From the NCBI GenBank assembly GCA_014804755.1, contig JAAUZE010000008.1, positions 100,109-164,108 on the forward strand: a stretch of 64,000 nt of DNA, read 5' to 3'. Both the position numbers and the translations under genes were made by a program. This stretch comes from Lachnospiraceae bacterium (GTDB taxonomy: Bacteria; Bacillota; Clostridia; Lachnospirales; Lachnospiraceae). Shown one piece after another: positions 7,450-45,616 of this stretch (its first letter is position 1; the number at the start of each line of letters is the position of its first letter). The notes under the pieces were generated by a model. It saw only the letters and a list, made by a program, of their open reading frames with translations, searched no databases and was not told the origin of the DNA.

Positions 7450-8724
7450 ATGAATCATAATTATAAAAAATATATTGTTTTTTGGTTAAGTCAGGCGGTA
7501 TCGCAGCTTGGAAGTCAGCTCACGGGGTTTGCATTGATTCTGTGGGCGTATTCACAGAACCATTCTGCGATGACGGTTTCTTTGATGTCCTTTTTTAACT
7601 ATGTACCTTACATTTTAGTGAGTCTGGCGGCGGGAGCGTTTGTTGACAGCCATAGCAAAAAGGGGATCATGCTGGTATCGGATACGATCGCGGCGATCTG
7701 TTCCGTGGTCGTACTCTTTTTAAGCATGTCGGGAGGGCTGCGGGTCTATCATATCTATATGGTCAATTTTGTGATCGGGCTGACGAGCGCGTTCCAAGGA
7801 CCCGCGTCCGCGGTGGCGGTCGGAAAAATGGTGCCGGAGGAGAAACTTGCACAGGTGAGCGGGATGAACTCTTTTTCGGGTAATCTGATCATGGTGTTGG
7901 CGCCGGTGCTTTCCGCGTCGTTATTTGCATTTGGCGGATTAACGATGGTATTAGTGGTTGATCTGTCAAGCTTTGTTTTTGCATTTGCGGTGCTGCTGTT
8001 ACTGATATATATTCCCGAAAATGAGCGGTTACAAGACGATAAAAAATCAATATTTGAAGGATGTGCGGAAGGGTTTCGTTATCTGGCGCGGCAGAAGGCG
8101 ATTTTCACGATCATCATTACGATGGCGCTGCTCAATTTTTTCTCAAGGCTTACCTATGAGAATATTTTGTCGCCCATGATCCTGGCAAGGAGCGGAAATG
8201 ATTCTTTGACGCTCGGGATCGTAAATGCGGTGATGGGGATCGGCGGCATTGCAGGCGGAATTTTGGTTGCCGCGGGGAAGTTTTCGAAGAATAGCGTAAA
8301 GATGATTTATTTTTCCGCGATGTTGTCTTTTTTGCTGGGCGATCTTCTGATGGGTATGGGACGCGGCGTTGTCCTGTGGTCGTTTGCGGGACTGATGGCA
8401 AGTCTGCCGATTCCGTTTATCAATGCGGGTCAGAATGTCATTTTTTATCGTACGGTGCCGACGGAAATGCAGGGCCGGGTATTTGCGGTGAGAAACGCCA
8501 TTCAGTTCTGCACGGTTCCGGTTGGCATCTTATTAGGAGGATTTTTGGCCGACTATGTCTTCGAACCGTTTATGGCGGCGGAATACGGTGTGGTTTCTGC
8601 GCTTCAATTGCTCGTCGGGAAAGGCGCAGGAAGCGGTATGGCGGTGATGTTTTTGTGCACGGGGCTGTTGGGAAGCTTTTTCAGTTATGTGTGCTACAGA
8701 ATCTATGAGAGTCATGCGGAATAA
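7450..8724 (+). CDS. MFS transporter (efflux-type, about 12 TM helices)
   Basis: 424 aa, hydrophobic throughout. The N-terminus FWLSQAVSQLGSQLTGFALILWAY is typical of the Mef/EntS-like MFS subfamily. Confidence 0.7.
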   Translation: MNHNYKKYIVFWLSQAVSQLGSQLTGFALILWAYSQNHSAMTVSLMSFFNYVPYILVSLAAGAFVDSHSKKGIMLVSDTIAAICSVVVLFLSMSGGLRVYHIYMVNFVIGLTSAFQGPASAVAVGKMVPEEKLAQVSGMNSFSGNLIMVLAPVLSASLFAFGGLTMVLVVDLSSFVFAFAVLLLLIYIPENERLQDDKKSIFEGCAEGFRYLARQKAIFTIIITMALLNFFSRLTYENILSPMILARSGNDSLTLGIVNAVMGIGGIAGGILVAAGKFSKNSVKMIYFSAMLSFLLGDLLMGMGRGVVLWSFAGLMASLPIPFINAGQNVIFYRTVPTEMQGRVFAVRNAIQFCTVPVGILLGGFLADYVFEPFMAAEYGVVSALQLLVGKGAGSGMAVMFLCTGLLGSFFSYVCYRIYESHAE

Positions 8725-14393: not shown

Positions 14394-14654
14394 ATGGCAC
14401 AGGCAATGATTAATTTTCGGATGGATGAAGAATTAAAAAAGAATATGGAAGAAATTTGCAAAGATTTAGGATTAAGCATGACAACCGCATTTACTATTTT
14501 TGCAAAAAAAATGACAAGAGAAAAAAGAATTCCGTTTGATGTATCGTTAGATCCGTTTTATTCAGAAAGTAATATGTCATATTTGAAAAAGGTAGTAGAC
14601 GATATTGAATCAGGAAAATCGGTTCTTTCTGAGCATGAATTACTCGAGGATTAA
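14394..14654 (+). CDS. Type II antitoxin (RelB/DinJ-type N-terminus)
   Basis: INFRMDEELKKNMEEICKDLGLSMTTAFTIFAKKMTREKRIPF is a DinJ-like ribbon-helix-helix. It ends 3 nt before the YoeB gene. Confidence 0.8.
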   Translation: MAQAMINFRMDEELKKNMEEICKDLGLSMTTAFTIFAKKMTREKRIPFDVSLDPFYSESNMSYLKKVVDDIESGKSVLSEHELLED

Positions 14655-14657
14655 TGC

Positions 14658-14921
14658 ATGAAGATACTTTGGGAGGAGCGCGCCTGGGAAGAATACTTAG
14701 AGTGGCAGATACAAGACAAGAAAACATTAAAAAGGATTAATGCTCTCATCAAAGAGATACAAAGGAACTGCTACGAAGGGATTGGTAAGCCGGAACCATT
14801 AAAAAATAATTTAAGTGGGTGGTGGAGCAGGCGTATTGATGAAGTAAATCGAATTGTTTATAAAGAAAAAGATGGAGCGGTTATTATAGCATCATGCAAG
14901 GGACATTATGAGGATACATAA
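14658..14921 (+). CDS. yoeB: YoeB/Txe-family toxin (mRNA interferase)
   Basis: KILWEERAWEEYLEWQIQDKKTLKRINALIKEIQR...GIGKPEPLKNNLSGWWSRRIDEVNRIVY...HYED is a near-textbook YoeB sequence. Confidence 0.85.
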   Translation: MKILWEERAWEEYLEWQIQDKKTLKRINALIKEIQRNCYEGIGKPEPLKNNLSGWWSRRIDEVNRIVYKEKDGAVIIASCKGHYEDT

Positions 14922-17516: not shown

Positions 17517-17713
17517 ATCGTCGGTTCCTTTCCTTGATAAGCCCTGTCAATCTGGTCTGTTTCATAAAATCATAGCATACTCGCGTTCATATTTCTATAA
17601 CAGTATTGATAAACTGGAATTTTCATGGTATTTGATCGTGAAAGAAATCAGATGGACAACCAGTGTGCGCAATTGCATAATGATTAAAAAACAAAAGAGG
17701 AGCGTGTCTGATT

Positions 17714-18640
17714 ATGAATACGTTACATTGTTGCATGAGGGAATATTTGGAATATTGTCATTATCGGAAGCGGTTGGATTCCAAGACATTGAAGGCTTAT
17801 CGTATTGACTTAAAACAGTATGAGGATTTTTGCGCCGGGGTATCTGATTGTTTTTCCCAAAATGCGGTGGACAATTTTATCACCTGTCTGCACAAACGGT
17901 ATAAGCCCAAAACGGTCAAGCGGAAGATCGCAAGCTTAAAAGCCTTTTTTCATTACATGGAATATAAAGAAATATTGCATGAAAATCCGTTCGTAAAGCT
18001 GGACGTCCGTTTTCGGGAAGCGAAGCTCTTGCCTAAGACCATTCCGTTTCATTCGATACAGGCATTTCTCTCTGCCATCTACACACAAAAAGAACAGGCA
18101 AAATCAGAATATCAGCGGCGATGCTGCGTCAGAGATATTGCCGTGATGGAGTTATTGTTTGCGACAGGAATGCGGATATCGGAGTTGTGTTCGTTAAAAC
18201 CCGCGGATATAGACCTTGAGAGCAATAACATTTTGATATACGGAAAAGGTGCAAAAGAGCGGATGATCCAGCTTGGTAATCGGGAGGTAATCGCTGCGTT
18301 GGTACAGTATCGGGAGACATTTAGAGAGGACATAGAGGTTTGCGGGTATTTTTTTGTGAATCGGTTACAGCATAAGCTATCCGATCAGTCGGTCCGTTTT
18401 ATGATCAATCACTATGCGGAGCTTGCGGGCATCACGCAGCACATCACGCCGCATATGTTCCGGCATTCTTTTGCCACACTTTTATTGGAGCAGGACGTCG
18501 ATATCCGCTATATTCAAAGGATGCTTGGGCACAGCTCCATTAGCACGACGGAGATTTATACGCATGTGTCGAACGCAAAGCAGAAGGATATTTTGGTGCG
18601 CAAGCATCCGAGGAATTTGATGGAGGTGAATGGAGGATAA
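17714..18640 (+). CDS. Tyrosine site-specific recombinase (XerC/D-integrase family)
   Basis: N-terminal SAM-like core-binding domain (FCAGV...KPKTVKRKIASLKAFFHYM). Catalytic signatures are ATGMRISEL (Arg), HMFRHSFATLLL (HxxR) and LGHSSISTTEIYTHV (Tyr). The last 7 nt of the CDS, through the stop codon at 18638-18640, lie inside the left inverted repeat. Confidence 0.9.
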   Translation: MNTLHCCMREYLEYCHYRKRLDSKTLKAYRIDLKQYEDFCAGVSDCFSQNAVDNFITCLHKRYKPKTVKRKIASLKAFFHYMEYKEILHENPFVKLDVRFREAKLLPKTIPFHSIQAFLSAIYTQKEQAKSEYQRRCCVRDIAVMELLFATGMRISELCSLKPADIDLESNNILIYGKGAKERMIQLGNREVIAALVQYRETFREDIEVCGYFFVNRLQHKLSDQSVRFMINHYAELAGITQHITPHMFRHSFATLLLEQDVDIRYIQRMLGHSSISTTEIYTHVSNAKQKDILVRKHPRNLMEVNGG

Positions 18641-18700
18641 TAAGAAATTATCTATTGAATAATGATTTGTATATTGTGAAAAACACCAATTTATCGGAGG
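18634..18700. repeat. Left 67-bp inverted repeat (IRL) of the candidate invertible cassette
   Basis: AGGATAATAAGAAATTATCTATTGAATAATGATTTGTATATTGTGAAAAACACCAATTTATCGGAGG is the exact reverse complement of 20587-20653 (67/67, checked base by base). Confidence 0.95.
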
Positions 18701-18705
18701 TTGAT

Positions 18706-19383
18706 ATGCATGTTCCTAAAGACGCTATTTTAATGCTATCTGGAGTATCATGTGTTGGAAAAACAACTGCAGCGTATGAGATAGTGAAGAATTATCCTGA
18801 ATTTAGAAGAGTAAGTGAATATGATTTGCTGAGAACAGTTGTGCGAACCGCATATGAATGTTTGGCTGAAGAAGCTTATATAGACAAGGATGAATTAATA
18901 AGTAAATATCATGCGTTGTTTGAGTCTATTACAAATAGCAATTTTGAAATTACCAAGTTACAGTCAGAACAATTACTTCCCTACGTTAAGGAGATAATTC
19001 TCAGACAACAAAGGCGACGGATACCAACTATAATAGAAGGTACTGGTATTATACCAAGCGCATATTTTCCTAATAATCAGCCATTAGCATGGTTATCAAA
19101 ACACGTAGTATTTATTAATCTATATATCTCTGACGAGGAAGATCACATTTCCCGAAGACAATCGCGTTCGGAGGAACGTGATTATCATGAATCGGCCAGT
19201 AAAACAGAAATAATTATTTCCCAATCTAGAGCAGGAAAAAATCAGTTATTACATATGCAGGCAATTAAGTTGCAGCAAAAATTTAAAAATGTGTTTAGCT
19301 TGGATGTTTCAAATTATACTCCAAGTCATATGGCAAGCAAAATAATGGAACTTGTTTTTGATTATTTTGATACCTATAACTAA
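18706..19383 (+). CDS. P-loop NTPase/kinase-like protein; function unknown
   Basis: Walker A is LSGVSCVGKTTAAYE. The ATG at 18706 lies 5 nt after the GGAGG that ends IRL. The listed TTG start at 18655 lies inside the repeat. Confidence 0.6.
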   Translation: MHVPKDAILMLSGVSCVGKTTAAYEIVKNYPEFRRVSEYDLLRTVVRTAYECLAEEAYIDKDELISKYHALFESITNSNFEITKLQSEQLLPYVKEIILRQQRRRIPTIIEGTGIIPSAYFPNNQPLAWLSKHVVFINLYISDEEDHISRRQSRSEERDYHESASKTEIIISQSRAGKNQLLHMQAIKLQQKFKNVFSLDVSNYTPSHMASKIMELVFDYFDTYN

Positions 19384-19392
19384 CAATATGAC

Positions 19393-20580
19393 TTATATAT
19401 CGTACAATTCGTTGTAGAGCTTTTCGGTCAAGGGAACCGCTTGTTCCCATACGTTTAAAAATGTATCATAAAGATGTTTTCCACGGCTTTGTATATCATT
19501 TTCGGAAATTTCTATTATTTCAAATGAAGAATTAGTAATTTGGAGAGGGTATCCTTCGCTGTCACATATTATTGGACTATAAAGCACGGCGTTATCACTT
19601 ATGATTATAGATTCTTTGCGTGGGCATTTGTATAGCCTAATCATTTCGCTTATAGGCAAGTGAAATCTATTTTGCATCCTAACAGCCGCTTCCAAACAGG
19701 TTTGTAAATCTGCTAAGAATCTCCTCTCTTTGTCTTTGCTTACAGCTTTGGTCATAGCTTCGCTTTTTGGATGTGGAAATAGACATTTAAAATCCACCCC
19801 ATTATTTATTCCTTCAATGGCTAGATACTTAAAAAAATCATCATTTTCACCTGTAAATATTTTTTTATTCCTTCTGCCATAAAACCATAAACGTTTGCCT
19901 TGATAATCAATTACATTTCGAATAAGTATTTTCGTAAGAACGCTGGTTGAAAATCCTTTATGAAAAAGAATATGCTCCTTGGTTATTTCAGGACTAACTA
20001 TTGTGAAATTTCCATGGTTGTCCTTCATAATTTGCTCAACCAAATCTCTGCAAGTGTCGGGAATCATTTGTTCACGTTGCAAGATCATTTTAACTTCTTT
20101 TATATATGCATTCCAGTGACTATTGAAGTTTTTGATATCTGTATTAGAATCTTTTGCCAATTCTTGTAAAAAACGTTTGAATTCCTCTCGTGATTTCTTA
20201 AAATTATCATTTTCATTATTTAAACGTATAGGGACATAACGATTTAGAGGTTTATCTACCCATGATGACCAATCGGGAATATGTTCAAATAATATTGGTA
20301 TAACTATACTTCCTCCTGGCTCTGCAAAATGTGCACCATACACTACACCTGCTTCATACATTAACCAAGGATTCTTAAAATTATCTGATGTTATACAAAC
20401 GATACATTTATCACTTCTCAAAAGATTATTATGTATTTCATTATCAACGGATGTCCCTTTATACATATCGGGAGAAAAAAACACTTCAATTTTATTTTCT
20501 AATGTATTCAAGATGAATTTTTTTGTTTCTAATGCTAATAATTTACTTTTATCTTTTGACCAGCTAATAAATATTTCCAC
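19393..20580 (-). CDS. TIR-domain protein with an uncharacterised C-terminal domain of about 250 aa
   Basis: The N-terminus IFISWSKDKSKLLALETKKFIL...VFFSPDMYKGTSVDNEIHNNL...CIVCITSDNFKNPWLMYEAG matches the bacterial TIR pattern (FISWS...S.DI..G......L.....I.......S.W...EAG), including the conserved Glu. The GTG start lies 6 nt after the GGAGG that ends IRR. Confidence 0.7.
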   Translation of the reverse strand: MEIFISWSKDKSKLLALETKKFILNTLENKIEVFFSPDMYKGTSVDNEIHNNLLRSDKCIVCITSDNFKNPWLMYEAGVVYGAHFAEPGGSIVIPILFEHIPDWSSWVDKPLNRYVPIRLNNENDNFKKSREEFKRFLQELAKDSNTDIKNFNSHWNAYIKEVKMILQREQMIPDTCRDLVEQIMKDNHGNFTIVSPEITKEHILFHKGFSTSVLTKILIRNVIDYQGKRLWFYGRRNKKIFTGENDDFFKYLAIEGINNGVDFKCLFPHPKSEAMTKAVSKDKERRFLADLQTCLEAAVRMQNRFHLPISEMIRLYKCPRKESIIISDNAVLYSPIICDSEGYPLQITNSSFEIIEISENDIQSRGKHLYDTFLNVWEQAVPLTEKLYNELYDI

Positions 20581-20586
20581 TTTGTT

Positions 20587-20653
20587 CCTCCGATAAATTG
20601 GTGTTTTTCACAATATACAAATCATTATTCAATAGATAATTTCTTATTATCCT
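20587..20653. repeat. Right 67-bp inverted repeat (IRR)
   Basis: Exact reverse complement of 18634-18700. Confidence 0.95.
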
Positions 20654-20771
20654 TTATCTTTAGAAACTACATCAACAGATACCGTTGAATACTTATTCGT
20701 CCAGCCCGTCAGACGACCTTTTATTACCCAATAACAAATGATCCAGTAGCATCCCATCTACCTAATTTTGT

Positions 20772-20800
20772 ATTGTACTACACGATTGTGCGTATTTCAA
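20772..20800 (-). promoter_or_regulatory. Putative sigma-70-type promoter firing leftward into IRR
   Basis: The minus strand reads TTGAAA, a 17-nt spacer, then TACAAT (plus strand ATTGTA at 20772-20777 and TTTCAA at 20795-20800). It lies about 120 nt outside IRR. Confidence 0.4.
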
Positions 20801-21025
20801 CATCTTTCTCAAATATTCAGTAAATACATACAAGCATTCTTAACTGCTGTCTTTTGCCATGAATATTAAGTTTGCTAATCTCGCCGCTTTACACTATCCA
20901 AGATTTATGAGAAAATGGTTCTGAATTAAGTCAAAACAGTTGAATAAAGTTGCGCAAAGCCCAACTTGCCAATATATACCCATTAACACAGTCTCCGTTG
21001 CTGGAGTATGCGAAAGGAGTCCATC

Positions 21026-23452: not shown

Positions 23453-23929
23453 ATGCCAATACAAATATCAGCCCAAGAGACAATCAATGCACTAAATGCA
23501 ATTTTTGAGAAACATAAAATGGAGCGTATTTGTGTTTTGGGAACAACATGTTGTGGTAAGACAACCTTGTTAAAACAAATTCCTGGTTGTGTAGATTTGG
23601 ATGATGAATTATGGCCGCAATTAACCAAAGAAGAAGCAGATTTTATCAGCCAAAAACCATGGACAAATGAAATTGGTGACTTTATAGATAAACTGGTTTA
23701 TGAAAAAATATCAGTAAAAGTTGGTCATCCGTTGTTCACTACAATCATTGTAGATTGCGATGTAGTAATATATTTGGATATCAGCGATGAGTTATTGGCT
23801 GAACATTGTAAGAAGCGGGGAAATGATTTTAAAGATTCCATAAATGTAAAGAAATCTATAGAAGGAGATTGGAATAATCACAGAAAAAGTGGTGGAAAAA
23901 CTTTTTATTATTTAACCGTCAATGAGTAA
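23453..23929 (+). CDS. Small P-loop NTPase/kinase-like protein
   Basis: Walker A is VLGTTCCGKTTLL. The RBS is GGAGGA. Confidence 0.55.
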   Translation: MPIQISAQETINALNAIFEKHKMERICVLGTTCCGKTTLLKQIPGCVDLDDELWPQLTKEEADFISQKPWTNEIGDFIDKLVYEKISVKVGHPLFTTIIVDCDVVIYLDISDELLAEHCKKRGNDFKDSINVKKSIEGDWNNHRKSGGKTFYYLTVNE

Positions 23930-24007
23930 TAATCATGAAAAGAGAACTATAAAAAATAGCATCGCAGGGATACAACAGCATACCACCCGATGAGGAGCCA
24001 AAACCAT

Positions 24008-25162
24008 ATGGAACATAAAGGGACGGTCAGAAAAGAAACAGAAAGCTTGATCTTGCCGGAAATAAAAGAAAATAAACAGATCAAAGGCCTGAAACTGTGC
24101 GAAGACTTTTTCAACGATTGCGCAAAAGCAATTCTTGATGAAAACTTTCCTGAATTAAGATATTCAGCAGGGCTGATCGGCTATGGTTCCGATGTGTTAG
24201 GGTATGATGATGCCGTATCAACAGATCACATGTGGGGACCGCGGTTTTATCTTTTTTTAAGTAAAGAGGATCTGTCAAAAAAGAATGACATCCTTTCGGT
24301 ATTATCCGAAAAGCTCCCTTATACATACGAGGGTTATAGCGTGAATTTCACAGAACCCGATCCGAATGACTGCGGCGTGCAGCATCCCAAACTGATCAGC
24401 GAAGGAAAAGTGAATCCGCTGATCTTCATTTACACATTTGAGGAGTATTTGACGGAACAGATTGGGAAGTCCGATTTAGATCATATCAGTCCGCTAGAGT
24501 GGCTTGCGTTTTCGGAACACAGATTGTTATCATTGGTTTCGGGAAAATTCTTTGTCGATCAGCTAAATTGTGTCGGGACGATCTCCAAGCTGATATACTA
24601 TCCGAAGGACGTAAAGCTGTATCTGATCGCCTCCAATTGGGAATGCATCGCATCGGAGCAGGCTTTTATGAAACGTTGCGGCGCATGCGGGGACGAGATC
24701 GGTTCACGGATCATCTGCGCCAGAATTGCGGAGCGCCTGATGAGGTTATGTTTTTTGTATCAGGACACGTACGCGCCGTATAGCAAGTGGTTCGGAACGG
24801 CATTCAGTAAACTGCCGATTGCTGAGAAAATAAAGCGGGCGATAGAAGGCGCGCTGACTGCGAATTGTTTGACAGAACGGGAAGACCGACTCATCGAAGC
24901 ACAGGCGTTGGTCGCGGATATGCATAATGCAAGCGGGCTTACCGAGTTTGTTGCTTATCAGATCGAAAGCTATTTCGGCAGAAATATCAAGGTGATCTTT
25001 GCCGACAAGTTTGTTGAGGCAACAGTTAAAGAACTGAAAGGAACGGTATTTGAGAACATGCCGTTGATCGGGACATTCAGTCAGATCGGCGGACTCGCGG
25101 GATTTGCCGATGAAAAGGAATCTTACGGGCGGATGGCGAGATTATACTGCGGTGATGAATGA
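24008..25162 (+). CDS. Hypothetical protein, DUF4037-like (tentative)
   Basis: The pattern GLIGYGSDVLGYDDAVSTDHMWGPRFYLFL is remembered from the DUF4037 family. The start is 23990 or 24008. Confidence 0.35.
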   Translation: MEHKGTVRKETESLILPEIKENKQIKGLKLCEDFFNDCAKAILDENFPELRYSAGLIGYGSDVLGYDDAVSTDHMWGPRFYLFLSKEDLSKKNDILSVLSEKLPYTYEGYSVNFTEPDPNDCGVQHPKLISEGKVNPLIFIYTFEEYLTEQIGKSDLDHISPLEWLAFSEHRLLSLVSGKFFVDQLNCVGTISKLIYYPKDVKLYLIASNWECIASEQAFMKRCGACGDEIGSRIICARIAERLMRLCFLYQDTYAPYSKWFGTAFSKLPIAEKIKRAIEGALTANCLTEREDRLIEAQALVADMHNASGLTEFVAYQIESYFGRNIKVIFADKFVEATVKELKGTVFENMPLIGTFSQIGGLAGFADEKESYGRMARLYCGDE

Positions 25163-31152: not shown

Positions 31153-31447
31153 CCAAAGCAATACTTTTATCCCGATTTCAGGCAAATTCTGCATCTCTGT
31201 GAAGCGCAAAGGATTGCGAAGCAGGGAAAGCGTGAGGGCGCCAAATCAGTCTGCGGCCTGAAGGCCGGGGATACCGCAGATCGGAAGGAGGAACAACACT
31301 CTGTAAAGAATATTGAGAAACGGTGATGATATCCCTTTACAGAGTGCCCTTCCTCCCCACGGTCTGCTGAACCGGGCTTCCGCTTCAGACTGATGAATGA
31401 GGGATATCAGTATTACTAAAACAAATTAAGATCAGGAGGAGTAAGTT

Positions 31448-42892: not shown

Positions 42893-43257
42893 CACAACGT
42901 GCATTTTAGATATATTCCTGAATTGTAAAGTTAACTTCCATATGAAACGGTAAATTCTACATGCACTTTGAAAACGCCATAAATTTTAAAGTTTTTAGTT
43001 ACGATAACTTCCGAAATGTGGTATACTCATCTCAAATTTATGCTAAAAATCGTGTTTAGAAGCATGGCAAACAGGCCTCTGGAAGATGGGTGTGTCAGAC
43101 TAACTTCTACAGGCCGTTAGAGATATGTTTGATTTCTGACCAGCGGCGGTTTTGCATAAGTTTATAAAGCTACTTAAGCAGCTTCGGGGACAGCTTTACT
43201 TCATCGGGTGCGATGTACCGGAGCTGCAGCTTTTGTAGCGTCTCCAGATCTGAGAGG

Positions 43258-43503
43258 ATGGTTCCTTTAAAAATAGTTAGTGCATTATTAATTGTTTCAC
43301 CAATTATTGTACCCATTTCTCCAATTAACAACATTGATATTATATTATCTATTCCGCTAGCATTTTTGGGATTGGCAATTATTGTTGCATGCTCTGTTAA
43401 TGATTATGAGAGCAAAGAACCTTTAGAGTTGAAAGATAAAATTGACCATAATAAATGTACAATAGGTTCTTGTAATCAACTAATTAATTATTTATCAAAA
43501 TAA
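43258..43503 (+). CDS. Small two-TM membrane protein
   Basis: RBS GAGAGG before the ATG at 43258. It has two hydrophobic helices (IVSALLIVSPIIVPI and LSIPLAFLGLAIIVA). Confidence 0.4.
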   Translation: MVPLKIVSALLIVSPIIVPISPINNIDIILSIPLAFLGLAIIVACSVNDYESKEPLELKDKIDHNKCTIGSCNQLINYLSK

Positions 43504-43736
43504 GCATTTAAGTCAAACACATAGTCGTAAGTAACAGGTAGTAAAATTTGAAATACTTAAAGCATAATATAGTGTTACAAAAGAAATAAGACATCAACTA
43601 ATGTGTTTTTATTGTACGACTACCCTTTCATATTATGCAAAAATATGTTCTGTATAGTATTGACACGCAATATGTAGTATAATGTCAATATTGGTATTTT
43701 ATTATAAAACCATTGACAATTGCGAGGAAAATATTA

Positions 43737-44480
43737 ATGAAATCGATAGGAACTTCAATGCATGAAGATTTATCACTATTTATAGATGAATCTGGCAGCA
43801 TAACTAAAACTAATATATCTTTTAATAGGTACTTTATTATTGCCATTCTATTTACACGGAAATATAGTAGATTGCAAAGATATTTTCAAAAGGGAATTGC
43901 GTCTTTATTGCAAAACCCCAAATATAAAATAATGCTGGAAGAAAATGGAGAAATAAAGGGAAGTAAGTTATCGGAAACAAAAAAGAAACCTATTTACGAT
44001 CGTATTATAAGAAATTGCTCAGAAGATTTTGAATTGGGAATAATTGTTTTAGATAATACATATACTACAGATGAGTTTATAAAAAATCATGCTAGAACAT
44101 TCAATTATATATTGCAACTCTACTTAGATAATATGTTTAGACATTGTAGTAAGTATTCTAAAAATACAAGAGATATGAGAATATTGATAGATGAACAAAA
44201 TATTTCTACAGATGCTAAGTATACATTGGATGATTATCTAGAACAGCATTTTACTGTTATGAATCCATTATGTCGCACGGTAGATGTTAAATATACAGAT
44301 TCTAAAAACCACCCTATGATTCAATTAATTGACTTTATATCTAACACTTTTTATCGAAACCTTGAAAAACATGATAAAACAAGTATAGAAACTGTAAAAA
44401 TGTTACTTCCCTATGTTTGTGGCGGAAAAATATTTGATTTTTCAACTAATCATGACACAAGATTAATGTTGGATGAATAA
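43737..44480 (+). CDS. DUF3800-family protein
   Basis: The N-terminal LFIDESGS motif and the C-terminal LIDFISN-type motif are characteristic of DUF3800. The start could be 43713, 43737 or 43758. Confidence 0.6.
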   Translation: MKSIGTSMHEDLSLFIDESGSITKTNISFNRYFIIAILFTRKYSRLQRYFQKGIASLLQNPKYKIMLEENGEIKGSKLSETKKKPIYDRIIRNCSEDFELGIIVLDNTYTTDEFIKNHARTFNYILQLYLDNMFRHCSKYSKNTRDMRILIDEQNISTDAKYTLDDYLEQHFTVMNPLCRTVDVKYTDSKNHPMIQLIDFISNTFYRNLEKHDKTSIETVKMLLPYVCGGKIFDFSTNHDTRLMLDE

Positions 44481-44659
44481 TATAGAATGTACTTGACAAC
44501 ATTATTATGGTATGTTATATTTACTTCACCAAGTAATTTCCCTTATACGGTGCATGAGGATGTAAGGCGGCTGTAATGTCGTCCACCATAGGGTTTTGGT
44601 AGAAAGACATTCCAGATATGGGATGTTTTTTCGCTTTATAAGTAAATATTTTCATATAT

Positions 44660-44692
44660 AAAAGAGACGGGATTGATCACCTCGTCTCTTTT
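44660..44692. terminator. Bidirectional-looking intrinsic terminator
   Basis: AAAAGAGACG, a 13-nt loop, then CGTCTCTTTT. The A and T tracts are built into the stem ends. Confidence 0.6.
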
Positions 44693-44970
44693 ATTACAAT
44701 GCCCTTTTATTAATTTTAGAAAGGATGTGATCTGATCAATCTAATACTACCACATAGTCCTACAATTAGATTGTGTCAATCACCAAAGCTGTTAACCAAG
44801 CTTTTACAGACTCAGGAGAAACTTAAGAAGAATGTTGTGAAAAAGCAAGAAATGTTGACGTGTGTTTGCTGTTCTTATTTATGTTGAACTGCAGGCCTTT
44901 TTCGGGTATAATTCATTCATGGCAGGAAAATAGGTTTCCGATTGGTTCGATCATGAGAGGGGGATTTCCC

Positions 44971-45213
44971 ATGAGCACTTTAGATGCAACAGTTTCCATG
45001 CTGGAAGCAATGCCGGAGGAGGCAAGAATCAAGGTTTTGGAATTTACGAAGCAGTTGTTCAACTCCAGAAAGCCGGCCAATCCGTTTGTCCCGGTCAGTC
45101 AGAGGCAGGTTCATTCCGACCTTACGGAATCACGTCAGCAGATTGCTGCCGGACAGGGATTGAATATGGAAGACGCTTTAGACAGAATGGGAAAACAGCA
45201 TGAATTCATTTGA
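44971..45213 (+). CDS. Type II antitoxin (partner of the RelE/ParE toxin)
   Basis: 80 aa with RBS GAGAGGGGG. It overlaps the toxin start by 14 nt. Confidence 0.55.
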   Translation: MSTLDATVSMLEAMPEEARIKVLEFTKQLFNSRKPANPFVPVSQRQVHSDLTESRQQIAAGQGLNMEDALDRMGKQHEFI

Positions 45214-45523
45214 TGTAATTATTTCACCAAAAGCATTGTCTCAACTGAACAGTTATGTTGATTATCTGCAATATACGCTGCTGAATGATCAGGCAGCTCG
45301 TAATGTGTGGCAGGATGCCATGGAAACACGGGATCAGCTTTCAAAAGCTGTCGAGGGTCTGAAACCCTGTTCTTATCCTCTGCTAAAAAAGAACGAATAC
45401 TGTGTCATCCATTTCATGCGGCACCGCTATCTGATGCTTTATCGGATAGAGGGATCGACCATTTATGTGGATGCGATATATCATCAGCTTCAGGACTATG
45501 AAAATATTTTTGCAGATGAATGA
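45200..45523 (+). CDS. RelE/ParE-family type II toxin
   Basis: 107 aa. The pattern ISPKALSQL...YLMLYRIEGSTIYVDAIYHQLQDY is typical of ParE/RelE-fold toxins. Confidence 0.7.
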   Translation: MNSFDVIISPKALSQLNSYVDYLQYTLLNDQAARNVWQDAMETRDQLSKAVEGLKPCSYPLLKKNEYCVIHFMRHRYLMLYRIEGSTIYVDAIYHQLQDYENIFADE

Positions 45524-45546
45524 GGCCGGTCAAAGCACAAAGGCGG

Positions 45547-45616
45547 CCCTGTCTTTTAGAGCGTACGACGGACTATGAGCAGATGACGCTCGTTTAAACA
45601 TATGGAAAAAAATACC
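45547..45616 (+). repeat. Right direct repeat (relic copy of the SRAP gene 3' end)
   Basis: It still reads in frame as PCLLERTTDYEQMTLV*, compared with PCLLERTTDYEQMTLF* in the intact gene. Confidence 0.85.

Follow-up and report, generated by a model that had tools for sequence, protein, structure and literature searches.

A TIR gene and a kinase-like gene in a probably invertible segment beside a tyrosine recombinase in a Lachnospiraceae genome

The stretch of DNA analysed here, called the window below, comprises 64,000 nt of a Lachnospiraceae bacterium (assembly GCA_014804755.1, contig JAAUZE010000008.1, positions 100,109 to 164,108). Its minus-strand gene at 19393-20580 codes for a protein, TIR-X, in which an N-terminal TIR domain is followed by a C-terminal domain referred to as X. 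This gene lies tail to tail with a gene for a P-loop kinase-like protein. A repeat search of the window revealed a perfect 67-nt inverted repeat, with 100% complementary arms and 1886 nt between the arms, that brackets exactly these two genes. The segment thus delimited (18634-20653) measures 2020 bp and is adjoined by a gene for a XerC/XerD-like tyrosine recombinase. The features of the segment and of the recombinase side are as follows.

17714-18640, plus strand: XerC/XerD-like tyrosine recombinase, 308 aa
18634-18700, no strand: left arm of the 67-nt inverted repeat, from the repeat search
18636-18652, no strand: left core GATAAT-AAGAA-ATTATC, two 6-bp inverted half-sites with a 5-bp spacer, read from the sequence
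18696-18700, plus strand: GGAGG ribosome-binding site that closes the left arm on its inner side, 5 nt ahead of the ATG of the P-loop gene
18706-19383, plus strand: P-loop kinase-like gene, 225 aa, convergent with the TIR-X gene
19393-20580, minus strand: TIR-X gene, 395 aa, open reading frame confirmed
19396-19998, minus strand: C-terminal X domain, phospholipase D (PLD)-superfamily fold without HKD motif, residues ~195-395
20161-20580, minus strand: TIR domain, residues ~1-125 to ~1-140, with invariant E76, from Pfam, Foldseek and the alignment
20587-20653, no strand: right arm of the 67-nt inverted repeat, with the mirrored core at 20635-20651 and the mirrored GGAGG at 20587-20591 before the GTG of the TIR-X gene

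The 17-bp core at the outer end of each arm has the form of a tyrosine-recombinase core site. The TAA stop codon of the recombinase gene (18638-18640) sits within the outer half-site of the left core. The recombinase matches Pfam Phage_integrase (8e-42) and carries an N-terminal SAM-like domain. It scores 247 bits against the NCBIfam XerD model and 239 bits against XerC, both below the equivalog cut-offs, and models of tyrosine-type DNA invertases also match. TIR-X starts with the GTG at 20580, and a GGAGG is sited 6 nt upstream, as read from the sequence. The TTG at 18655, given as the start of the P-loop gene in the list of open reading frames, was rejected: it lies inside the repeat, and homologues align from the Met of the ATG at 18706, the likely true start. 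The stop codons of the P-loop and TIR-X genes are 9 nt apart, and in relatives the two genes overlap. The cassette forms a low-GC patch, with a GC content of 0.33 compared to 0.42-0.50 around it. At the settings used, the sole other inverted repeat found in the window was a short imperfect hairpin at 31276-31367 (33 nt, 79% complementary, 26-nt loop).

Both orientations of such a segment occur in nature between the same flanks. They were found in a lineage with an identical TIR protein, P0032, from one sequencing-run series. The first type has the order recombinase, ThsB, PNP/STALD, P-loop gene, TIR-X gene and IS3 (L039 and L041 among the matches listed, with 10 further similar places); in the second, the TIR-X gene precedes the P-loop gene between the same neighbours (L040 and L042-L045). 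Nucleotide comparison of the two types showed flanks that are 100% identical and a 1973-bp segment, with its 27-nt repeat, that is inverted. Within the segment only two positions differ, a single base per outer half-site (CAATAAC versus CAATAGC), and this flank-specific base remains with its flank on inversion. Therefore the crossover took place on its inner side, where an exchange in the core would put it. One further contig, L046, present in 13 samples, spans exactly from repeat to repeat, and both of its ends show the IS-side variant. This would fit mixed orientations within samples, given the presumed behaviour of the assembler. Finally, the window and L011, whose recombinases share 83% aa identity, are collinear over the recombinase and inverted over the segment. 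Bounding inverted repeats, a linked recombinase and both orientations in nature (in the P0032 lineage, and between the window and L011) are thus all present, and we regard the segment as very probably invertible.

Relatives were taken from one-genome-per-species contigs of Butyrivibrio, Lachnospiraceae, Oscillospiraceae, Petralouisia muris, uncultured Bacilli and Anaeroplasmataceae, with more from metagenome contigs. The database search returned 94 clusters of full-length TIR-X homologues (372-419 aa, 35-91% identity). A survey of the neighbourhoods of homologues, as had been proposed for this gene, showed that the P-loop gene, the inverted repeats and the cores are kept across the family. The two genes stand between inverted repeats, 18-113 nt long, in loci of Lachnospiraceae, Oscillospiraceae, Bacilli and Anaeroplasmataceae, even where TIR identity has fallen to 31%. 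Nearly all related loci have a 17-bp core of the form RATAAY-N5-RTTATY before each of the two genes, 10-70 nt from the start codon, and the ribosome-binding site may follow it directly, as in L039: AATAACTATAAATTATTCGGAGAAGACTAAATG. A homologous recombinase gene adjoins the cassette in most long loci, on either side and reading either in or away. The gene on the recombinase side is the P-loop gene in the window, L003-8, L013, L016/17, L019 and L038, and the TIR gene in L010, L011, L015, L035 and L048. Members of the cassette family are also found in the cultured strains Thomasclavelia cocleata, Petralouisia muris NM01_1-7b and Lachnospiraceae bacterium 47-T17 (P0316, L021, L023), which makes the model directly testable.

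The repeats have left their mark on the assemblies. In 36 of the 94 TIR-X clusters the longest contig measures 1.88-2.06 kb, the size expected where an assembly with k=31 breaks at the repeats, and the P-loop family shows the same signature. For the window's own sequence the Logan contig, L032, measures 1946 nt, that is 1886 + 2x30 nt. The value k=31 for Logan is an assumption, with these 30-nt repeat ends as its sole support.

The two Pfam models TIR_2 and TIR match residues 3-127 of TIR-X with 35.4 bits (curated cut-off 28) and 24.9 bits (cut-off 21.3) respectively. An AlphaFold model was built from an alignment of 37 homologues, with a predicted local distance difference test (pLDDT) value of 84.8. 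In Foldseek this full-length model matched the solved TIRs of SPARTA TIR-APAZ, SpbK, SARM1 and MyD88 with a probability of 0.99-1.0, and the N-terminal part has the flavodoxin-like TIR fold. Residues Y75, E76 and G78 of the 'YEAG' motif are unchanged across the 37 aligned homologues, which share 37-91% identity with the window protein. E76 is presumably the counterpart of the catalytic Glu in solved TIRs, as judged from its W-x-x-x-E-type motif and not from a residue-level superposition. The protein is laid out as a TIR domain (residues ~1-125), a helical linker (~125-190) and a globular domain (~195-395). The PADLOC 'TIR-TM' model covers the N-terminal 172 residues only (E=2.7e-16), and the PHROGs matches are likewise confined to the TIR part. 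TIR-X is most likely an NAD+-consuming or signal-making effector. A relation to SPARTA, or to short pAgo TIR-APAZ systems, was considered and rejected: the Foldseek TM values are only 0.27-0.30 and are explained by the TIR part, the C-terminal domain is PLD-like, TIR-X has no APAZ domain, and no Ago gene lies among its neighbours in the window.

The X domain matched nothing in Pfam (even at E<=10), NCBIfam, PADLOC, PHROGs or the PDB sequences, and the PLDc family of Pfam in particular gave no match at E<=10. With the full-length model, Foldseek returned TIR-driven matches only. The X domain is, however, modelled confidently as a PLD-superfamily fold, with likeness also to PPK, Zucchini and BfiI. 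An HMMER search of the sequence library with the X domain gave 122 representative clusters, and 93 representative domain sequences were aligned with that of the window. Across these 94 sequences no His at all is conserved, and so none for the HKD motif, HxK(x)4D. The conserved positions are G235, R236, K/R237, N238 and K240 ('GRKNxKLF'), L267, F268, P271, Y317, R321, D329, T349, F353 and W378. Since the HKD motif that defines PLD enzymes is missing, the modelled domain most likely has the PLD fold without being a PLD-type hydrolase. PLD-fold domains that lack HKD and bind ligands are known in the sugar-binding domain of TrmB/TrmBL2 and in the DUF1669 of FAM83. The X domain has no detectable sequence relationship to either, and the motif set GRKNxKLF, Y...R.......D and T...F is particular to its own family.

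In other proteins the X domain follows GT4-conflict, PNP_UDP_1 or calcineurin-like phosphoesterase (Metallophos) domains, or stands alone. Because one C-terminal module sits behind interchangeable effector-type heads, we infer that it serves as a sensor or regulatory module. It would be the regulatory or ligand-sensing part of TIR-X, and its conserved basic and polar cluster would suit a phosphorylated ligand. The X domain would be a previously uncharted PLD-fold module common to several conflict-type effectors. The cassette layout is not universal for X-domain proteins. The locus of a PNP-X protein, L050, has neither a P-loop partner nor an invertible layout, and no P-loop gene is present at the Metallophos-X locus L049. 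In the latter (L049:2781-5220) the Metallophos-X gene is convergent with a gene for a 286-aa membrane protein whose C-terminus resembles an X/PLD-like domain by eye.

The original prediction, made from the sequence of the window, had read this gene as a TIR protein with the conserved Glu in YEAG, and both points are borne out by the Pfam scores, the Foldseek matches and the invariance of E76. The TIR fold, on which that reading hinged, is supported at the profile level by a TIR_2 score above the cut-off. The same prediction held that the C-terminal part matches no recognised domain. This is correct for sequence searches of Pfam, NCBIfam, PADLOC, PHROGs and PDB, and the structural comparison it recommended has since supplied the PLD-superfamily fold without HKD. 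The extra region of ~250 aa that it described is real, but is better divided into a linker and a domain with the boundaries given above. Its idea of a sensor-effector fusion gains from the recurrence of the X domain behind GT4-conflict, PNP_UDP_1 and Metallophos domains, as far as the sensor part is concerned.

The conserved features of the P-loop protein are a Walker A motif SGVxxVGKTT, E38/D40 (E-x-D), R47, RQQRR, IIEG and the LID-like arginines R150/R154. All its profile scores are below threshold (AAA_33, 20.3 versus 27; 2-phosphoglycerate kinase, 28 versus 343). The best match in PDB is adenylate kinase (E=4e-4), and the nicotinamide riboside kinase NRK1 also gives a weak match. 'Kinase-like' appears a reasonable label on this basis. 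The family defined here is large, with 473 proteins at E<=0.001, and most of the 120 listed members measure ~205-245 aa. Its gene adjoins every TIR-X relative of at least 31% identity whose contig reaches that far. In P0129 the TIR, X and P-loop domains are fused in one polypeptide. At L048 a TIR-X-P-loop fusion faces a second TIR-X, and a 48-nt repeat there takes in the first codons of both genes. At L047 a cassette of this kind pairs a GT4-X gene with a convergent homologue of the P-loop gene. At L022 a guanylate-kinase-like P-loop gene (L022:5426-6004) precedes a distant TIR-X of 32% identity, is co-directional with it and overlaps its start codon; this distant TIR-X is not in an invertible cassette. 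Because of the P0129 fusion, the co-directional gene of L022 and the GT4-X protein with the same convergent partner, the P-loop protein is tied to X-domain proteins and is predicted to be their real, conserved functional partner. It would act on the ligand of the X domain or on TIR-X itself. In two metagenome-assembled genomes of uncultured Bacilli (L016:2317-2942 and L017:6915-7540) the P-loop gene matches in two frames, the result of a frameshift (possibly a pseudogene) or of a sequencing error.

The partnership with a P-loop kinase-like protein had likewise been put forward in the original prediction. The partner is indeed conserved, but its assignment as a kinase relies on sub-threshold matches. 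The pair is real as well; it is made, however, of convergent genes in a recombinase-associated invertible segment and not of an ordinary operon. In agreement with the prediction that the partner is not an effector of the ThsA type, no ThsA-type gene lies nearby in the window.

Transcription must enter the segment from its flanks, since many lineages have the ribosome-binding site immediately behind the core, with no room for an internal promoter. A promoter inside the repeat was sought and rejected, as no consistent -35/-10 pair lies between core and ribosome-binding site in any lineage. The adjacent XerC/D-like recombinase would flip the segment by crossing over within the cores. In the state seen in the window, the recombinase transcript would run into the P-loop gene, and after a flip it would run into the TIR-X gene; flipping would thereby exchange the gene joined to the recombinase-side transcript for the one joined to the other flank. 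Because the stop codons lie so close together, or the genes overlap, and no room is left for a terminator, a transcript from one side would run antisense through the other gene. Two heritable and reversible expression states would result, with the gene joined to the stronger flank favoured. The flanks of the window hold the following candidate signals.

17653-17681, plus strand: promoter-like site before the recombinase gene, TGGACA-17-CATAAT, 10/12 matches in the consensus scan, a consensus match only
20654-21007, minus strand: non-coding right flank, not conserved in relatives
20800-20772, minus strand: promoter-like site in the right flank, TTGAAA-17-TACAAT, directed towards TIR-X and the cassette, from the consensus scan
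20688-20672, minus strand: weak hairpin and T-run in the right flank, after the promoter-like site

The promoter-like matches in both flanks are near chance level. On balance, we favour the view that the locus is a programmed-inversion cassette that rewires two genes to flanking promoters, probably as a phase-variable TIR-based defence module. Whether its orientation acts as an expression switch seems an even question, judged from the layout of genes and signals.

None of the genes around the cassette in the window is a classical defence gene: they code for the recombinase, GNATs, a methyltransferase, MerR, RelB/YoeB and a HAD hydrolase. The cassettes of relatives lie beside ThsB-type TIR genes, PNP-STALD, TIR-SLOG, AbiH, type I restriction-modification (R-M) genes and a Mu-like prophage. 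In two lineages (L039:5963-8954 / L040:958-3949, and L048:6934-8526) a Thoeris-like pair, a ThsB-type TIR gene and a PNP_UDP_1+STALD gene, reads straight into the cassette. There the flipped gene would become the last gene of the ThsB/PNP-STALD operon. At L011:7952-9947 genes for a thymidylate-synthase-like protein and a 5-hydroxymethyldeoxyuridine (5-hmdU) DNA kinase read into the cassette from the far side. Genes of this kind are used in phage thymidine hypermodification. A role of the cassette in defence appears about evenly poised. Because of the defence context of relatives and the conserved TIR Glu, an anti-phage, NAD+-linked function would be our best guess.

Several observations weigh against a defence-related expression switch. 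A consensus promoter scan of both flanks at 15 loci did not reveal a consistent side, and L003, L010, L011, L019 and L048 have genes on either side that point into the cassette. At 9 of 11 loci the flanks mirror each other, with genes that either both read in or both read away. Both genes may be transcribed in both states, at different levels. Moreover, the P0129 fusion and the co-directional operon of L022 suggest that both proteins are needed together, a poor fit to strictly exclusive expression. The window's own lineage is represented by a single long contig in the same orientation, and no orientation polymorphism was seen in it. As to defence, PADLOC holds no model for the TIR-X/P-loop pair, and the TIR-X family has no member in viral contigs.

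Alternatively, the locus might be an ordinary two-gene TIR system, with both genes always expressed from the flanks. The repeats and the recombinase would then serve mainly for movement and exchange of the cassette, and inversion would be a by-product without regulatory effect. Nucleotide similarity between the window and L009 or L010 (89-92%) starts and stops exactly at the outer repeat ends, and the flanks are unrelated; the L010 recombinase is only 46% identical to that of the window. In the Butyrivibrio metagenome-assembled genome L009, no recombinase gene was found within 6 kb of the cassette, which has a 113-nt repeat (L009:5882-5994 and 7881-7993) whose arms each enclose two nested cores that differ in type (window and L003/L021). 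This cassette is 89% identical to that of the window, and the similarity ends exactly at the inner core, a pattern that suggests exchange of cassettes between loci. Genes that enter from both sides, and the simultaneous need for both proteins implied by the fusion and operon forms, also agree with constant expression. However, both orientations are found between identical flanks, each of them common in one lineage, and the two inverted cores and the recombinase are kept across very divergent members, although mobility alone would not require invertibility. The far flank is not conserved between relatives, and a dedicated second promoter is therefore not part of the module. We consider this explanation rather unlikely.

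A toggle between toxin and antidote is more doubtful still, and we hold it to be improbable. TIR-X would be the toxin, the P-loop protein would neutralise TIR-X or its product, and a flip would separate a protected state from one of growth arrest or self-killing, for bet-hedging or dormancy and not for phage defence as such. TIR NADases are commonly toxic, and convergent genes without a terminator, served by a single dedicated promoter side, would indeed be expressed in a mutually exclusive manner. The kinase fold also resembles small-molecule and nucleotide kinases, including the weak nicotinamide riboside kinase matches. Yet the TIR gene stands beside the recombinase or operon in the assembled majority state of L010, L011, L015 and L040-L045, and this state is therefore not lethal. 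Moreover, no family match supports a toxin-antidote relation, and a fusion protein would couple toxin and antidote permanently.

Finally, it is highly improbable that the inversions are artefacts of assembly across the inverted repeats: assemblers cannot orient a segment between repeats longer than k, and many contigs do break at the repeats, but the 27-nt repeat of the P0032 lineage is shorter than the assumed k=31, so that its junctions are resolved by reads, with unique junction k-mers and contigs that cross both junctions in both states; the source contig of the window was assembled with k=119, which exceeds the 67-nt repeat; and the flank-specific base segregates as in a site-specific crossover.

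If the programmed-inversion reading is right, flipping a whole effector/partner gene pair would offer an uncomplicated means, inherited yet reversible, of keeping only part of a population armed. How bacteria limit the cost of costly and risky abortive-infection effectors such as TIR NADases is an open question. Programmed inversion would also be extended beyond promoters, surface structures and R-M specificity genes. A full-text literature search of a limited collection found no description of such an inversion cassette with TIR, Thoeris or defence. More tentatively, gut Firmicutes might carry a widespread, undescribed class of immune modules. In these, an effector-sensor (TIR-X, GT4-X or double TIR-X) and a kinase partner would lie tail to tail in a cassette of ~2 kb, flipped and swapped between loci by a dedicated tyrosine recombinase. 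Phase-variable immunity or self-toxicity would result, and the X domain and the kinase would form a new sensing pair.

Other loci of the window that may be of interest lie outside the cassette. A RelB antitoxin / YoeB toxin pair is found at 14394-14921, ~4 kb upstream. At 23453-25162, amid several GNAT acetyltransferases, the gene for a small P-loop protein that weakly matches deoxynucleoside kinases precedes one for a DUF4037 protein. A second low-GC patch (43000-45600, GC 0.32) holds DUF3800 (43713-44480) and a ParE-type toxin (45200-45523) with a small upstream open reading frame, and is flanked by SRAP peptidase and Y-family polymerase genes.

Among known systems, Thoeris shares with the cassette a bacterial TIR with a catalytic-type Glu, and relatives have the cassette immediately behind ThsB and a PNP-STALD gene. 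TIR-X differs in its built-in PLD-like domain and its kinase-like partner. Thoeris itself was rejected for the window copy, which has no SLOG, STALD, Macro or other ThsA-type effector near it; STALD and SLOG genes are present in some relatives only. The phase switches of Clostridioides difficile RecV (flgB, cwpV and cmr), the Bacteroides capsule promoters and fimS also combine short inverted repeats with a tyrosine recombinase. They give reversible ON/OFF heterogeneity from promoter or leader segments of 150-400 bp, whereas in the cassette the genes are inside the segment and the promoters would be fixed. Type I R-M hsdS inversion systems, such as the 'epigenetic invertons' of Streptococcus pneumoniae PsrA/CreX, likewise rely on tyrosine recombinases that act on inverted repeats (PMC7672463, PMC7096588). 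The hsdS systems resemble the cassette as a defence-related locus with a linked XerC/D-like tyrosine recombinase and inverted repeats (PMC7672463, PMC7096588). Their repeats, however, fall within paralogous coding sequences, whose specificity domains are reshuffled, while the cassette turns over whole genes and has its repeats as leaders upstream of them. In logic, the cassette appears closest to the Mu G segment and the other Gin/Cin/Pin segments. Mu G segment/Gin, P1 Cin, e14 Pin and PinQ have oppositely oriented genes that start at the repeats, signals outside, an adjacent recombinase and two expression states, the last of which would apply to the cassette by analogy. Those systems use serine invertases and exchange paralogous tail-fibre parts that share a constant 5' part, whereas the cassette pairs a tyrosine recombinase with two unrelated genes. 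Unlike the genes of the Gin/Cin/Pin segments, this pair is found fused or in one operon in relatives.

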